Shown here: positions 36,078 through 63,595 of the stretch, one piece after another | Layout: every line of letters starts with the position of its first letter | Numbering within the stretch: position 1 is the stretch's first letter | Source: a phage | Sequence record: NC_129898.1 | DNA: 64,000 nt | Reading direction: 5' to 3' (one strand) | Notes under the pieces: generated by a model | Told to the model about the DNA's origin: nothing | Seen by the model: only the letters and a program-made list of their open reading frames with translations | Database searches by the model: none | Program-made: the position numbers and the translations under genes

Positions 36078-36106
36078 TTGAAATGAACAAAAGAGTTATG
36101 TATACT
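36078..36106 (+). promoter_or_regulatory. sigma70-like promoter for the plus-strand kinase operon
   Basis: TTGAAA (36078-36083), 17-nt spacer, TATACT (36101-36106); RBS GGAGG before ATG 36135. Confidence 0.55.
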
Positions 36107-37154: not shown

Positions 37155-37505
37155 ATGAAAGAGGAGGATAAGCTGCCATACCTTAAAGTCCCATTTGGAA
37201 TACTGTCTATGTCAAAAGTTTTGAATGATACAACTGGAGAGGTTGTTGTTCTTGACTTGTATGACAAGATCGTATACTGCTACCTGCACAACTGGTATAA
37301 GCTTGGAGGAAATTCACGCTTCACACCCAGCACAAGGAAAATTGCAGCAGATGTTGGGATAAAGAAAACAAAAGCAGCAGCGTGCGTTAAAACTTTAGAA
37401 TGTGCAGGAGTGGTTGAAATATCCACACAAGGGAGAGGTAAAAGATGCACATTTTCCAAAGTTTTGCCACCAGAAGAGGTTATTCGAATGTCAACAACTG
37501 GTTAG
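37155..37505 (+). CDS. helix-turn-helix DNA-binding protein candidate
   Basis: STRKIAADVGIKKTKAAACVKTLECAGVVE HTH-like segment; 116 aa; immediately upstream of the palindrome array. Confidence 0.45.
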   Translation: MKEEDKLPYLKVPFGILSMSKVLNDTTGEVVVLDLYDKIVYCYLHNWYKLGGNSRFTPSTRKIAADVGIKKTKAAACVKTLECAGVVEISTQGRGKRCTFSKVLPPEEVIRMSTTG

Positions 37506-38947: not shown

Positions 38948-39023
38948 CAAAAATAATGTTACCTGATAAGATCTGCAATATGATGTGATACAATTTTAAC
39001 TTACGAGGTCTACAGGTAATGCT

Positions 39024-39266: not shown

Positions 39267-39553
39267 GGTTGTTTTCGTGTATCATGATGAATATCCAATT
39301 TAAAGATGAATTTGATGGCTTTATCTCCGGATGCTTTGAAACAGGGTTCGGAGAATGCTGAGTTCCCATTAGAGGGCTTGATAGTGCACCACACTTAAAA
39401 TGGTAGGGGCAGCCAGCACATGACGATGTGACCCCAGCCAACCTGTAATAAGGTCGAGCCAAAGCGCGGTAATGGGTCTCTGGTAACCCACTTGTTGGGT
39501 CTTGTGGTCCAGGACGCTGGGCAAGTCGCAGGGAATACCACCCTGCGGCGAAC

Positions 39554-39599
39554 TTGACAATCAGTATTTGCCGTGATAAAATCCACCTATCACGTGATA
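39554..39599 (+). promoter_or_regulatory. sigma70-like promoter with overlapping 12-bp palindrome
   Basis: TTGACA (39554-39559), 17-nt spacer, TG-n-TAAAAT (39574-39582); perfect palindrome TATCACGTGATA (39588-39599). Confidence 0.55.
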
Positions 39600-39610
39600 A
39601 TGGAGGAAAC

Positions 39611-39949
39611 ATGGCGGATACAACTAAAAAGCGTCGCCGTAGAGGCAGACCTCTGAAAGAGGAGTCCAACGCCATTCAGCTAGAGAAGAACATTCTTGAT
39701 ATGAAGGAATCTTTTATAGCGATGGTTCCAGAAGCTCACAAAGTTTTAAGAGAGCTGATGTTGGATCCGAAAACCAAGCAAAATATTCGTCAAAGCATTG
39801 CAGAGTATGTTCTTGATAAGGCAGACCGAATGCAGGAAGAATATGATGAGATGTTTGGTGAAGAGGAAGAGGTGGTAGTAGAAGAGGCTGAAAAACCAGC
39901 ACCTTTTATGCCATTTACCACAGAAATACAGCCTGTTAGCAATAGCTAA
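39611..39949 (+). CDS. hypothetical protein with Arg-rich DNA-binding N-terminus
   Basis: ATG 39611 with GGAGG RBS; MADTTKKRRRRGRPLK then acidic C-terminus; possible small terminase or regulator. Confidence 0.5.
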   Translation: MADTTKKRRRRGRPLKEESNAIQLEKNILDMKESFIAMVPEAHKVLRELMLDPKTKQNIRQSIAEYVLDKADRMQEEYDEMFGEEEEVVVEEAEKPAPFMPFTTEIQPVSNS

Positions 39950-40045
39950 AATATTTTCTTGACAAACTTTGCTTAACAGTGTAATATTGTAAACATGGTC
40001 TCCCACCTTTTCTGGCGGCTAAGGTGTAAAAGAAAGCCACCCAGT

Positions 40046-40250: not shown

Positions 40251-40335
40251 GGTGAGTTAATTCCGTAGGGGTAGCGGGGCAGACTGTAAATCTGTTATCA
40301 TTGCGATTCGGGTGGTTCGACTCCATCACTCACCA
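40251..40335 (+). tRNA. tRNA-Tyr (anticodon GTA), long variable arm
   Basis: Acceptor GGTGAGT/ACTCACC, anticodon loop CTGTAAA, T-loop TTCGACT, discriminator A, CCA encoded. Confidence 0.75.
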
Positions 40336-40640: not shown

Positions 40641-40737
40641 CGCTAGGTAAGCCCTTTGGCAAGGGCGAGGATTTTTAATCCTGAAAATAGACGAGGTAGT
40701 CGTTGAATACATAGATGGTTCGATTCCATCACCTAGC
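40641..40737 (+). tRNA. atypical 97-nt tRNA-like element (anticodon loop TTTTTAA, possibly UUU)
   Basis: Perfect acceptor GCTAGGT/ACCTAGC, D-stem GCCC/GGGC, canonical T-arm GATGG-TTCGATT-CCATC, but ~30-nt variable region with ACGA-GGTAG-TCGT hairpin. Confidence 0.35.
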
Positions 40738-40743
40738 ACCTTT

Positions 40744-41804: not shown

Positions 41805-42088
41805 GAGCCACCGTATTATTAGTTGCTTGCTTGCTTCTGTGCGGATGCGCGACAAGTGTCGAAAAAGAATATAAGATTGATCCTCCGGATGTGGGAAGAT
41901 TGATTGTTAAACCGCCCGAAGGTGCTATGAAGCCTCCTGCTAAAGCTATACCTTTAAAGAAAGGTGCGCCTGATGCGGTGAATTCTGGCATTATGAGGGA
42001 TAATAACCTGTCTTGCAGTAATGATAGGGCTAAATTGATCATTTTGCAAGACTATATTAGAACACTGTTTCCAAAGGAGAGAGGTTAA
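41801..42088 (+). CDS. o-spanin (Rz1-like) lipoprotein candidate
   Basis: Signal peptide with Cys-containing lipobox-like LLLCGCAT, proline-rich mature region (DPPDVG, KPPEG, KPPAK). Confidence 0.55.
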   Translation: MRATVLLVACLLLCGCATSVEKEYKIDPPDVGRLIVKPPEGAMKPPAKAIPLKKGAPDAVNSGIMRDNNLSCSNDRAKLIILQDYIRTLFPKERG

Positions 42089-43635
42089 TGTCTAAGATTT
42101 ACGGACCGTGTTCTGAAAAGCAGAAGATGATCCTTGAAAACGATGCAGACATTCTTGTCATTGGTGGTGCGGCTGGTTCAGGTAAGTCGTTCCTCCTGCA
42201 GTTGATGCCGCTTAAAATTATTGATGATCCGCACAGCTCTGTGGTTATGTTCCGAAGAACAACTCCACAGTTGGAAGGTGAGGGTGGGCTATGGCCTAAA
42301 GCAGTAGCTATTTACAGTGATCTGCCTGAAAACATTAAACCAAAGTTCAGAGAGAAGGATCATAAGTTTATTTTTCCACGGTTTGATCCGAGCACTGGCA
42401 AGTGGGACAGGAGCAAAAAAGGGGCCGTTGTAAAATACTGCCACATGGAGTATGTCCAAGATAAGCTTAACCATCAAGGCCTTGAGTACACCATGGTTTG
42501 CTTCGATGAAGGCACGCAATTCGAATGGGAGCAGATAGACTATTTGATGTCTCGTCTGCGATCTCAGTCAAAGTATCCATCAAGAATGGTTATCAGTTGT
42601 AACCCCGACTCAGAACACATGCTTGCCAAACTGGTTAGGTGGTGGTTGGACGATGAAGGGTATCCAGATCCGGAGAAATGTGGTAAGAAAAGATATTTTA
42701 TCCGACGCGACGGTGAGTTTATCTGGGGAGACTCTAAAGAGGAGTTAATAGAGAAATACACCACGGTTAACGGACTGGGTGTGGAGATCAAGCCAAGACC
42801 GTTGTCATTCTCGTTTATAGGTGCAACAATTTTCGATAATCCTGTCTGCTTGAGAGACAACCCAGAATACCTTGCTTTCCTTGAAGGTCTACCAGAGCTT
42901 GAAAAAGCCCAGCTTCTTCATGGCAACTGGTTTGCCAAACCTGAGGGTGCAAACTATTTCCAAAGATCTTTCCTTCGTGATGCCGATAGAGTACCTCTTG
43001 GATCAGTATCTTGCAGGGCATGGGATAAGGCAGGAACCGAGAGAACTTCCGGTAATAAATTTCCTGACTTTACTGCCAGTGTTAAGGTAAGTAAAGATAG
43101 CGACGGTTTTTATTACCTGTCCGGGGATTATTGTCCTGAGAACGTGGATGACGGTAGGTATTCCACAGGTCTGGAAGGTAAGTTCTGTAAAAAGGCTGGG
43201 GAACGAGATGTGATCATCAGGAAACAGGCGCAGTTTGATGGAGATGATTGCATAATCGTATTTTCTGTGGACCCCGGTCAGGCAGGTAAGAGTGAGTTCT
43301 TAACCTCGTCCAGATCCTTGCTCGCCGAAGGGTTCAGGGTTGAAGAAGATCCGATGCCTTCCAACAAATCTAAACTGACAAGGTTCTCACCTTTTGCCAA
43401 TCTTGCCCAACAAGGAATGGTGAGGATTGTAAAATCCAGTTTCCATCCTGACACTCTGGAAGCATTTTTGACTGAACTTGAAAAGTTCAACGGGGAAAGA
43501 TCAACATTTAACAGAAAAGACGACTGGGCCGACTGTGTAGCTTCTGCGATTAATTTCCTGGAGAAAGAGGAGGTAGCGCTGCCTTGTGTTATTCCATCAA
43601 TCTCATCACCTTCTATGTTCAAGCGTTTTATCTAA
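42088..43635 (+). CDS. terL: terminase large subunit
   Basis: Walker A VIGGAAGSGKS and Walker B MVCFDEGTQ in the N-terminal ATPase; 515 aa; heads the structural module. Confidence 0.85.
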   Translation: MSKIYGPCSEKQKMILENDADILVIGGAAGSGKSFLLQLMPLKIIDDPHSSVVMFRRTTPQLEGEGGLWPKAVAIYSDLPENIKPKFREKDHKFIFPRFDPSTGKWDRSKKGAVVKYCHMEYVQDKLNHQGLEYTMVCFDEGTQFEWEQIDYLMSRLRSQSKYPSRMVISCNPDSEHMLAKLVRWWLDDEGYPDPEKCGKKRYFIRRDGEFIWGDSKEELIEKYTTVNGLGVEIKPRPLSFSFIGATIFDNPVCLRDNPEYLAFLEGLPELEKAQLLHGNWFAKPEGANYFQRSFLRDADRVPLGSVSCRAWDKAGTERTSGNKFPDFTASVKVSKDSDGFYYLSGDYCPENVDDGRYSTGLEGKFCKKAGERDVIIRKQAQFDGDDCIIVFSVDPGQAGKSEFLTSSRSLLAEGFRVEEDPMPSNKSKLTRFSPFANLAQQGMVRIVKSSFHPDTLEAFLTELEKFNGERSTFNRKDDWADCVASAINFLEKEEVALPCVIPSISSPSMFKRFI

Positions 43636-48251: not shown

Positions 48252-48285
48252 GGGGAGGGGGTTCTCCCCTCCCCTTTTTATTTAT
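48252..48285 (+). terminator. intrinsic terminator
   Basis: GGGGAGGGG-GTTCT-CCCCTCCCC followed by TTTTTATTTATT. Confidence 0.8.
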
Positions 48286-48307
48286 TAGGGTTTAACAGGA
48301 GTGTCCC

Positions 48308-49123
48308 GTGAAGAGAGCCGTATATCCAGTTGAGTATGATCCTCTATTAAGAGTTTTCAACAATCAGTTAAGTTTCTATCAATTTTTAGCACAATATAAC
48401 CCAGAAATCAATGTTGGTTTATCAGCCCTGCTGCCACCAACAGAATTCGTTATTGGCAGTGTTCACTATCCGTGCAGAACGATTGTAGACTTCTTCGAGA
48501 AGATTGCAAAACACACAGGCCTGCCAATTGATACTGGTATTTCAACTATCCGTATGGGTGTTATTCTTCTGTTCTTCACAGAGAACCTTGATGAAAGCAC
48601 TTTAACACTGCAAAGCGGTGATGTCAATATCACACTCACCCCGTCAGTGTTTAAAGAGGTAGATGCCGCTTTCAAAGTTTCCGTGGCAGAGGGCCATCTG
48701 TGGGATCCTGCAGGGATGCCTAAAAAAGTGACCATAAACGATGAGCAATGCAGCATTGTTTATGAAGAAGATACCCAAACTTTCACCATCGAATGGCCTA
48801 AGAAACGCTCTCAGGTTGTAAATCTTGGACTGACCTCTACAGTGGCCCCAGAGCCTGAACCTGAAGTTCCGGAACCACCTCTTGAGGGTGACGGTGAAGG
48901 TCCTGTAGCAGATCCACAAGATGTGGCTGTAGCCTCTTTCGCATCTGCAGCTGTTGAGAATAAGGATGAAATCCTTAAACAGGCCGCAGCTCTTAACAAC
49001 GAAGATGACAAAAGTGGTTCAAAAGATGCACTCCAAACCTTTGCTAAAGAGTATGGTGTTACCTTAAGTAAGGCAAAAACTTTCCAAAATATGATGAAAG
49101 ATTTTGAGGCTGCACTGGCATAA
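48308..49123 (+). CDS. hypothetical structural protein with Pro/Glu-rich linker
   Basis: 271 aa; PEPEPEVPEPPLEGDGEGP linker. Confidence 0.5.
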   Translation: MKRAVYPVEYDPLLRVFNNQLSFYQFLAQYNPEINVGLSALLPPTEFVIGSVHYPCRTIVDFFEKIAKHTGLPIDTGISTIRMGVILLFFTENLDESTLTLQSGDVNITLTPSVFKEVDAAFKVSVAEGHLWDPAGMPKKVTINDEQCSIVYEEDTQTFTIEWPKKRSQVVNLGLTSTVAPEPEPEVPEPPLEGDGEGPVADPQDVAVASFASAAVENKDEILKQAAALNNEDDKSGSKDALQTFAKEYGVTLSKAKTFQNMMKDFEAALA

Positions 49124-53290: not shown

Positions 53291-53402
53291 TGGTTTTGAC
53301 ACACGCTCTTGAATTGCTTGAAAGGTTAAATTGACAATGCACCGTAATCATGGTAAAATACACAAATATGGTGCACAACATGACTAATAAGGATGCTATA
53401 AA

Positions 53403-60997: not shown

Positions 60998-63595
60998 ATG
61001 CGTATTCAACACAACATTGATAACGTATTTCAGATGATTGAGGGGCACAGGAAGTGCCTCGATAACAACACAGGCATTACCAATCTCCCCACGCAGAACA
61101 AACTGGTAAACCAGGATGGACTTATAGCGTCAGGTTGGTCAGGGAGTAAGATAAATAATGATTGGGCAATGCATGAAGCTCAGGCTGTGTTGATTCTGGG
61201 GTACATTGAGGCATACAGGGCATCAAAAAGCGATTTTTACCTAGATAGGGCCAAAGAAGCTTGGGAAGCCTACAACAGTCATCTTCTGGGTGCCTATGCA
61301 GTAGAAAGTAAAATGCAAAGATTGTCCCACTACCCATTATCCACAGATGGGGTTCCATCACATGGTGGATTTAAAGATGTAGTGGTGTCTTTTACCAATG
61401 GTAGAGGAAAAATCCCAGCTGGATCTCCGACATGGGGGGAATACTTAGACAAGGCATTCCAAGCGTATAACGGTGTGCTAGGAAGAAACACTGTAGACTC
61501 TGATGTTTACGGCGGCACAGATGCTAACCCAAATTGGACAACATCTGGATTAAGTTGGTGGGTTGAGTGGTATATAGCATGGGATGGTAACCGCTATTGG
61601 GCCAACGGTAGCATAGCCGACAGTGGTCATACGTCTGTAGAGTTCGGCACAATCCAACTGCAGGATAAGGGTGTTACAGGCAGCCACAAGGTAACCTACT
61701 GTGTAAGATTGCCACAAGAGCAGGGTGGATCGGTGATACCTGCTGGATCCCCTGTAATTGTAAATCCTATAAATGTGGTTGCAGACAATCAAGCCCCAGA
61801 GTTGGATGGGGAAGAAATGTGGTGTGACGCTTGTTATCAACTCTACACCTTGACAGGTGAGGAAAAGTATTACACAGCGTTTAAGCAGTCTTACAACAAG
61901 CTGCTTAATTTCAGCGATATAAATGCCTACGACAAACTGTTTAGAAAGACCACGTTAATTAAGGCACCGTTCACAGATGGTACTTGTCTAGTCGCAGGAA
62001 CAGTTCCTGTCATGAGCAGGGACAGCGACGGGTATATCAATTTTAGAATGAACGCACGTCAGCCTTGCGAAATAATTCAAAAAGGGACTACATACAAGAT
62101 AGGCAGAGATGCTGAAATTGTTATGAATTTCGGAGGAGAAGGGGTTCTGTTCCAGCCACACTTCATCCTTAACGATGGCAACAATAACAAAAAACAGTAT
62201 AGGATAGGTGTCCCTTTTGGAGGGGCAGAGGTAACAGAGACAGTTGCCAAGGTTACTGATTTCGTAGAGGTGGTTGGTAAAGATGGTAACCCGTATCTCT
62301 TACCAAAAGAGGAAAACATTGTCGTAAGCGGTGGCGCTAGTGTTAGTATGCAGTATGATACCGACATTTATAACCACTCCGACAACTTCACCCGTTGCAA
62401 CATAGCAAGAGGCAAGGTAACTTTCAATTTTGGAAGAGAGATTTCTTTAAACTCAGTAACTTATCGATCAGATGATGAGATGATAAGGGTCAAATTTCTT
62501 GACAAAGACCGTTGGTTATGGTATGCTGATCTATATGCCACTAATGGACAATGGATAACAGAAACTCTTACCCTAGGTGATTTTAAACTAGACCCAACAC
62601 AACCTCATCACACAGAAGATGAGATTAAACCTTTCTTTGCTAACCCTAAAGGAATTACCTCTGTAGATTTCAGTCTGAGCGACAGGCAGATAGGCAATGG
62701 CTTGTTCGATCTGTATTGCGTCAACACGCTGCCACAATTTTATGTTGCAGATAGGGATGCTTATCTGATCTGGTTTAGTGTATGGATGGCAAGCAAGACA
62801 GAATCAACAGCCAAGGTTGGTGATTGCTATGTCAGAAACTACAAGCAAGGTGCCTACAGGCACACCCCAGGTGTGTTCCCTGCCGGAAAGGTGATAGACA
62901 AGGAAAATTATCTCTTAGAGGAAAGGCCAAATTGGCCCTATCCTGGAATGCAATATCCGGTAGTCTACTGTATGGGTGCGGAAAACATAGATCGCCAAAG
63001 ATTGGCAAATACCATTGGATTTATGTACGACTCCCAAGTTTGGTATAACAACACATTTAAAACAGAAGGGCCAGTTGCATCTCGCTATGTATGGCAGAGG
63101 GGTAATGAGGGGTTGACTGGTTGGTGGGAGATGGTAGATAACTCTAAACTCCAATCAAGAGCCTTTGTTGCTGCGTGTCGCACACTATATGAGCTTAAGA
63201 AACATAAAGAACCTGTTGATGAAAGACTGTTCCTGTTCTGCCAGAAATGGGCATGGTTCCTCAACAGATTCCAGTCATCTCATTCCGGAAATCTTCCTAC
63301 AGACTTCAACACCTCAGGAGGATATTCTTATCAAGACAGAGGTGACAGGATGTGGGTGGTAGGTGAATGGCTTGCAGGTTGCTGCTGGCTAGGCCTTTGT
63401 GGGTATTCAGAGACAATACCTCAAATAGATATTGTTGTAGAAGCCTGTGTGAAGTTACTGCAAAAGCACCACTTCATTAACGGGGATAATGTTTTAAACG
63501 GCTGCTGGGCAGTTTCTGATCCGGTAGGCTATCACTCTGGCGAAATCCTTCGCGGTCTGGGACTTTATGCTCAATACCGTGGATTGTACCTTTAA
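60998..63595 (+). CDS. large Trp/Gly/Tyr-rich tail protein (possible receptor-binding or depolymerase-like protein)
   Basis: 865-aa ORF between two paralogous fibre-like ORFs; no catalytic motif recognised. Confidence 0.45.
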   Translation: MRIQHNIDNVFQMIEGHRKCLDNNTGITNLPTQNKLVNQDGLIASGWSGSKINNDWAMHEAQAVLILGYIEAYRASKSDFYLDRAKEAWEAYNSHLLGAYAVESKMQRLSHYPLSTDGVPSHGGFKDVVVSFTNGRGKIPAGSPTWGEYLDKAFQAYNGVLGRNTVDSDVYGGTDANPNWTTSGLSWWVEWYIAWDGNRYWANGSIADSGHTSVEFGTIQLQDKGVTGSHKVTYCVRLPQEQGGSVIPAGSPVIVNPINVVADNQAPELDGEEMWCDACYQLYTLTGEEKYYTAFKQSYNKLLNFSDINAYDKLFRKTTLIKAPFTDGTCLVAGTVPVMSRDSDGYINFRMNARQPCEIIQKGTTYKIGRDAEIVMNFGGEGVLFQPHFILNDGNNNKKQYRIGVPFGGAEVTETVAKVTDFVEVVGKDGNPYLLPKEENIVVSGGASVSMQYDTDIYNHSDNFTRCNIARGKVTFNFGREISLNSVTYRSDDEMIRVKFLDKDRWLWYADLYATNGQWITETLTLGDFKLDPTQPHHTEDEIKPFFANPKGITSVDFSLSDRQIGNGLFDLYCVNTLPQFYVADRDAYLIWFSVWMASKTESTAKVGDCYVRNYKQGAYRHTPGVFPAGKVIDKENYLLEERPNWPYPGMQYPVVYCMGAENIDRQRLANTIGFMYDSQVWYNNTFKTEGPVASRYVWQRGNEGLTGWWEMVDNSKLQSRAFVAACRTLYELKKHKEPVDERLFLFCQKWAWFLNRFQSSHSGNLPTDFNTSGGYSYQDRGDRMWVVGEWLAGCCWLGLCGYSETIPQIDIVVEACVKLLQKHHFINGDNVLNGCWAVSDPVGYHSGEILRGLGLYAQYRGLYL

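Follow-up and report, generated by a model that had tools for sequence, protein, structure and literature searches.

The promoter at 39554-39582 is a known one, predicted for the related phage rV5 in 2013 as P74. We consider it quite probable, taking the account as a whole, that the perfect 12-bp palindrome overlapping its start is incidental and that the gene behind it, ORF74, encodes a small terminase subunit (TerS). The DNA analysed is a stretch of 64,000 nucleotides (sequence record NC_129898.1; hereafter the window) from an rV5-like Vequintavirus, and the region discussed here is 95-97% identical to many Vequintavirus coliphages. The rV5 RefSeq record (NC_011041) labels exactly this site 'Sigma70-type promoter; P74', upstream of ORF 74 (63252..63280), and Kropinski et al. 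(2013, Virol J 10:76; PMC3606486), who predicted 33 sigma70 promoters for rV5, 11 of them with an extended -10, give it as P074 in their Table S4. Their prediction of the site comes from a consensus search, and the text of that paper contains neither 'palindrom' nor 'operator'. About 18 GenBank records in the MG0656xx series, named 'Campylobacter phage' with host C. jejuni, carry a region 95-98% identical to this one and an ORF74 that is 100% identical; these records are probably mislabelled or contaminant rV5-like coliphages.

All elements of P74 lie on the + strand. The -35 hexamer TTGACA (39554-39559) matches the consensus at six of six positions and agrees with the rV5 record and with Table S4; it is followed by a 17-bp spacer (39560-39576) that ends in the TG of an extended -10 (39574-75), and then, with TGa before it, by the -10 hexamer TAAAAT (39577-39582), for a consensus scan score of 11/12 with extended -10. 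Counted from sigma70 geometry, the predicted transcription start is A39589, a purine at the expected spot 7 nt after the -10. The Shine-Dalgarno sequence GGAGG (39602..39606), which is kept in relatives, and the ORF74 ATG at 39611 come next. The -35, -10, TG, leader, and palindrome of the window and of rV5 are identical, and two spacer bases differ. Its consensus -35, spacer of 17 bp, TG at -15/-14, TAnnnT -10, and purine at the expected +1 are features that P74 has in common with sigma70 promoters of the extended -10 (TGn) type from E. coli and its phages. Unlike the plain extended -10 class, P74 has a -10 that reads TGATAAAAT together with the TGa before it and is similar to the 'late' motif of rV5, TGGTAAAATA. 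The same layout of a -35 plus late motif is found in P36 and P51, promoters of rV5 structural genes (PMC3606486, Table S4), and this likeness is compatible with a packaging gene lying downstream of P74. A literature search for transcriptomic or TSS studies of rV5-like phages found none, and both the +1 and the use of P74 count here as inferred.

Two further observations concern the promoters of these phages. P51, another strong promoter (TTGACA-17-TAAAAT; window 53331-53400, rV5 48276-48329), also matches the late motif, and a 9-bp inverted repeat, TGCACCATA ... TATGGTGCA in rV5 and with one mismatch in the window, brackets its -10 and start site. P74 itself belongs to a cluster of closely spaced sigma70 promoters at 36078, 36403, 37091, 38944, 39554, and 39959.

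Both chance expectation and comparison among relatives indicate that P74 is a conserved, selected feature, as judged from the DNA itself. The window contains 11 promoter matches of at least 11/12 against 1.75 expected in Markov-1 simulations, and six such matches with TG against 0.125 expected; the near-consensus promoter reported in the sequence-only reading is thus clearly above chance. Relatives were graded by ORF74 identity, comprising 10 near-identical copies from the rV5 genus and clades at 89, 82, 72, 69, and 68%, and were extended to other genera (Mydo-, Seuna-, Henuna-, Avuna-, and Certrevirus, plus LTH01). A TG-extended TTGACA-17-TAnnnT stands upstream of the ORF74 ortholog in every relative sampled, which, together with the annotation of the rV5 authors, bears out the earlier proposal of a host-type promoter driving 39611..39949. 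Across these relatives neither the -35 nor the spacing changes, and the -10 varies by at most one base; the spacer falls to 50-60% identity while keeping its length and its TG, and the leader drifts as well. The 10 rV5-genus copies show no change from the -10 to the ATG, although the test within the genus has no power because this clade is at least 96% identical. Mydo- and Seunaviruses carry two tandem TG-extended promoters before the ORF74 ortholog.

The palindrome, TATCACGTGATA, occupies 39588-39599 on the + strand, that is, -1 to +11, in the initial transcribed region. It is dyad-symmetric and perfect over its 12 bp, as had been reported, and it lies inside the RNA polymerase footprint. The earlier reading had placed its centre near +1; the palindrome spans the predicted start and has its centre at +5/+6. 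From this arrangement the sequence-only reading had deduced the architecture of a repressible promoter. In its full form this would be a true operator, at which a dimeric repressor encoded by the phage (or possibly the host) binds TATCACGTGATA at -1 to +11 and shuts P74 at a defined stage of infection. The position speaks for this idea, with a perfect dyad exactly over the start site, where binding would block RNA polymerase, much as dyad sites of the lacO1 and lambda OR/OL type lie over +1. In contrast to those systems, P74 has a single copy of the site, at best candidate repressors, and a dyad that is not kept in relatives. The outer hexamers TATCAC/GTGATA of the palindrome match the lambda consensus half-site; however, its half-sites abut and lack the 5-bp centre of lambda-type CI geometry. 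Presumably none of the Fur, CRP, LacI-family, or lambda operators fits the palindrome in half-site spacing or orientation.

The frequency of such sites does not favor an operator. Perfect 12-bp palindromes are not above chance either in the window (14 versus 14.8 expected) or in rV5 (35 versus 32.5), and sites with at most two mismatches to TATCACGTGATA, for which a genome search had been proposed, are not enriched (2 versus 2.2 expected in the window; 3 versus 4.7 in the rV5 genome, where the third lies inside a structural gene). P74 alone among 25 annotated rV5 promoters has arms of at least 6 bp in +1 to +30, and by our estimate the chance probability of one such palindrome among 25 promoters is ~0.1-0.4. 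The palindrome is absent from the other 24 annotated rV5 promoters. A role at the RNA level was considered and rejected, as the hairpin has a folding energy of just -1.2 kcal/mol and folds of the 5' leader are no better than those of shuffled sequences. The 'second GTGATAA copy' that had been placed inside the spacer straddles the boundary between spacer and -10 (39573-39579) and is the TG-extended -10 itself (TGaTAAAAT). The G at its front is not kept in relatives; in rV5 the stretch is ATGATAA. Arms of the same kind are seen elsewhere: a perfect palindrome at 502-513 of the window, TTATCATGATAA, has the same TATCA/TGATA arms without the CG centre, and the Erwinia phage Hena1 has TTATCAgTGATAA over the -10 of its ORF74 promoter. 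TGATAA-type arms probably recur because they coincide with TG-extended -10 sequences.

The behaviour of the palindrome in relatives is also unlike that of a dyad operator, as far as the sampled sequences tell. Every sampled copy from the rV5 genus has it intact, and it is identical in the 89% clade, so that a young, lineage-specific operator is conceivable. The identity in that clade extends beyond the palindrome, however, because the leader (28 of 28 positions identical, against only 82% identity in the CDS) is part of a larger block of ~95% identity spanning ~39363-39720. A strong constraint specific to the leader in this clade was considered and dropped, being accounted for by that block. 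In the 82% clade, where leader and CDS are similarly diverged (76% and 77% identity), the site reads CATCACGTGGTA, with two substitutions that fall in two different symmetric pairs, neither of them compensated. The 68-72% clades read TATCATATACTC, TATCATATGTTC, or TATTAACTATTC, keeping the left TATCA alone, and the palindrome is absent from the other genera sampled. The decay is thus asymmetric and non-compensating while the promoter stays, and the lasting TATCA at +1 fits an ordinary start-site context.

A possible second copy lies at the neighbouring promoter P75 (38944..38972, + strand; TTGACA-17-TAAGAT with TG; found in the scan and listed in Table S4). Just one further site in the window comes within two mismatches of TATCACGTGATA, namely TATGATGTGATA at 38979-38990; it matches at 10 of 12 positions and begins 6 nt after the P75 -10, a nearly equal offset to that of the palindrome, which begins 5 nt after the P74 -10. 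We estimate a nominal chance probability of ~0.003-0.04 for this look-alike. An operator common to P75 and P74 was nevertheless rejected, since the P75 leader is wholly different in the 89% clade, which keeps the P74 palindrome. No other annotated promoter bears the motif. As for the repressor, the gene for a winged-HTH protein lies 2 kb upstream (37155-37505); both this protein and ORF74 are candidates by proximity only. (The winged-HTH protein has 116 aa, belongs to HTH_36/DUF6945 and PHROG 12838, has a strong promoter of its own, P76, and is labelled either 'replication initiation protein' or 'putative transcriptional regulator'.) Given the chance frequency, the lack of enrichment, the P75 look-alike that is not co-conserved, and the non-compensated decay, the operator reading is unsupported and we regard it as unlikely. 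Most likely, the palindrome is a lineage-specific coincidence in the initial transcribed region and not an operator.

Two other explanations assign meaning to parts of the palindrome. The first holds that the right arm matters and the dyad does not. This arm, together with the following AT, forms a -10-like GATAAT at +8 to +13 (39596..39601, + strand), which may cause sigma70-dependent promoter-proximal pausing or may be a vestigial or weak second promoter matching the downstream member of a tandem pair. Sigma70-dependent pausing at -10-like elements is established for lambda PR' and lacUV5. Both critical positions of a -10 hexamer, A2 and T6, are present in GATAAT, and the scan recorded a weak site, GTGATA-17-GATAAT, at 9/12; in the tandem promoters of the Mydo- and Seunaviruses the downstream -10 is TGATAAnAT, and TATACT occupies a comparable position in the 72% clade. 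Against this, the element is present in the window and in the 89% clade, but the 82% clade has GGTAAT, in which the essential A is lost, and nothing comparable occurs in the 69% clade; as a second promoter, it would start ~3 nt before the ATG and lose the Shine-Dalgarno sequence. We consider this explanation improbable. The second supposes that P74 is orthologous to P1, the upstream one of the two tandem promoters in Mydo- and Seunavirus, and that the palindrome is a collapsed second promoter, a relationship that is suggestive by eye and is not claimed here. Certrevirus and LTH01, however, carry a single promoter at an equal distance from the ATG.

On the reading that we prefer, with P74 as an ordinary host-type promoter and the palindrome as a coincidence, P74 would be read by unmodified host RNA polymerase from about A39589, giving a 22-nt leader that carries the ribosome-binding site GGAGG, followed by ORF74 (39611-39949). 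From ORF74 to the tRNA genes the + strand has no predicted terminator, and for this reason read-through past ORF74 is probable; transcription from P74 would then run on into the tRNA cluster, toward the spanin, large terminase, and portal genes. The next promoter, P(tRNA), lies 10 nt past the ORF74 stop (39959..39987, + strand; TTGACA-17-TAATAT; found in the scan, in NC_011041, and in Table S4). The gene for the large terminase (TerL), part of the synteny context, is co-oriented with ORF74 and begins ~2.1 kb downstream of it (42088..43635, + strand).

Several features of this neighbourhood vary or are incompletely annotated. TerL is one uninterrupted ORF of 515 aa (42088-43635) in the window; in rV5 it consists of three segments with an inserted HNH endonuclease, and it is also interrupted in JEP1 and rV5_ev146, so intron and homing-endonuclease content differs among near-identical phages. 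Within the tRNA cluster, an Rfam tRNA at 40251-40335 (39 bits) is missed by ARAGORN, and relatives annotate a tRNA-Tyr in that part of the cluster. ARAGORN in turn reports a 99-nt 'tRNA-???' with a 4-base anticodon at 40642-40740 (37.5 bits with Rfam); a BASEL phage has a 97-nt tRNA-Lys directly before tRNA-Thr at the same relative place, and the tRNA at 40642-40740 may be intron-containing or otherwise unusual.

ORF74 (39611..39949, + strand) encodes a protein of 112 aa that belongs to PHROG 3330, a family without assigned function, and is 'hypothetical' in all annotations save one, which calls it a 'putative regulatory protein'. No TerS has been assigned in the Vequintavirinae (PMC9769974), nor is one assigned in the curated BASEL record. 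The family alignment shows an Arg-rich, AT-hook-like N-terminus (motif KRGRGRP) with an invariant GRPLKEESNAI. After a helical middle comes an acidic linker that varies, and the peptide PFTT(D/E)I is conserved at the C-terminus. An AlphaFold2 model of the monomer (mean pLDDT 69) has helices at residues 16-38, 42-51, and 53-82 and no canonical HTH. A Pfam scan of ORF74 and its family returned noise and weak AT_hook matches only, and none for ORF74 itself. The layout of the parts is compatible with a TerS, at least as far as a model and an alignment allow: the basic AT-hook-like arm would bind DNA, the helical core, probably homologous to NV1/PaP3 TerS and followed by the acidic linker, would serve oligomerisation, and the conserved C-terminal peptide would dock on the large terminase.

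The homology signals that point to a TerS are individually modest. In a profile search of the PDB the best match is the small terminase of NV1 (7JOQ, E = 0.2), and with a broader profile NV1 (E = 0.098) and PaP3 (6W7T, E = 0.61) are both in the top 3 of 177,635 sequences; a Foldseek comparison of the AlphaFold2 model with the PDB has 7JOQ as its sole match, which is not significant. An exhaustive HMM search widened the ORF74 family by remote members, 18 of 18 of which match PHROG 3330. For five of these 18 there is a further match to phrog_2538, 'terminase small subunit', with a best E of 3.3e-5. Two more TerS families, phrog_10899 and phrog_7344, are matched by single members, and E values for the TerS PHROGs run from 3.3e-5 to 7e-3. 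Comparison by hhalign of the ORF74 family profile with an alignment of NV1/PaP3-type TerS gives a probability of 79.9% (P = 1.4e-5) over 41 columns, placing ORF74 residues 31-71 against NV1 residues 67-107. A homology search with the NV1 TerS fragment yielded a single short match of no use.

Gene order contributes further evidence. ORF74 of the window precedes TerL in the same orientation, with tRNAs, ORF68, and the spanins between them. Among remote homologs, TerL and portal come after P0071 with an HNH gene in between and after P0073 with three small ORFs in between, and P0066 is followed by small ORFs, a split TerL, and portal. In the PaP3-type Pseudomonas phage HZ2201 (L042 59-776), the TerS gene lies right after a tRNA cluster and before a lysozyme gene, which echoes the Vequintavirinae order of tRNA, ORF74, tRNA, and spanin. 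There are also differences from the TerS proteins of NV1 and PaP3 (PDB 7JOQ, 6W7T), whose helical core is the part matched to the ORF74 core by profile-profile comparison (80%). Those proteins are longer (~155 aa versus 112 aa) and have an N-terminal helix-turn-helix domain where ORF74 has an Arg-rich AT-hook-like arm; moreover, unlike in the NV1/PaP3 case, several genes lie between ORF74 and TerL. A strong sigma70 promoter and a place inside the tRNA cluster would also suit an early gene. On balance, profile comparisons and synteny make it rather likely that ORF74 is the small terminase subunit. The two functions offered earlier for its Arg-rich product thus fare differently: the small terminase gains moderate support from hhalign, the TerS PHROGs, and synteny, and for a DNA-binding regulator nothing specific is found beyond the basic AT-hook-like N-terminus.

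A terminase assignment raises the possibility that ORF74 itself binds the palindrome together with the two TGATAA repeats, which are spaced by 21 bp (39574 and 39595), in which case recognition of a packaging site would be coupled to autoregulation of the ORF74 promoter. A comparable overlap with small-terminase promoters exists in the pac region of SPP1, and the ingredients are at hand in a probable TerS with an AT-hook-like basic N-terminus and in TGATAA elements that lie two helical turns apart directly upstream of its gene. Yet the N-terminal DNA-binding motif is near-invariant across clades and the palindrome is not, one of the two TGATAA elements is the -10 itself, and AT-hooks are of low sequence specificity; we consider such a site very unlikely. 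A broader version, in which the palindrome and the TGATAA elements are a recent binding site, confined to the rV5 lineage, for ORF74 as a small-terminase-like AT-hook protein or for another phage factor, and tie packaging-site recognition or late shut-off to the promoter of a packaging gene, is very improbable as well. Comparison among relatives gives no positive evidence for any of the four alternatives considered, namely a young operator, a pause at GATAAT, a vestigial second promoter at that hexamer, and a site for ORF74.

Independent of the promoter question, the DNA between ORF75 and the P74 -35 contains a GC-rich, conserved non-coding element of ~190 nt (39365..39553, + strand; core 39434-39477) that ends 4 nt before the -35. 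The alignment of relatives shows invariant blocks and several hairpins with compensatory changes. Its inner stems read CACAT/ATGTG, CATAT/ATATG, or CTACG/CGTAG across clades with the pairing kept, its outer stems read GGGG/CCCC or GGAAC/GTTCC, and its 3' hairpin changes from CGCAGGG/CCCTGCG to CGCATGG/CCATGCG in rV5_ev146. The core, CCAACCTGTAATAAGGTCGAGCC...GCGGTAATGGGT plus a nested hairpin, shares 91-95% identity with hundreds of T4-like phages, and in T4 the counterpart lies in the gap after denV (T4 locus L011 1446-1545). Other Vequintavirinae genera have a tRNA-Cys in its place. Searches of Rfam with the element and its T4 counterpart returned nothing relevant at E<=10. These patterns of sequence and pairing make the element a candidate unannotated structured RNA.

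Taken together, P74 fits the known picture in which rV5-like phages rely on strong host-type promoters, and there is nothing new in the promoter itself. The palindrome, being without statistical or comparative support, does not warrant a laboratory hunt for what is probably a non-existent repressor. The structured element upstream, common to T4-like phages and absent from Rfam, offers a second lead beside ORF74. ORF74/PHROG 3330 itself is a testable TerS candidate for the Vequintavirinae, where none is assigned; these phages are a large group of coliphages much used in therapy and biocontrol, and a TerS candidate matters for understanding their packaging specificity and the risk of transduction.
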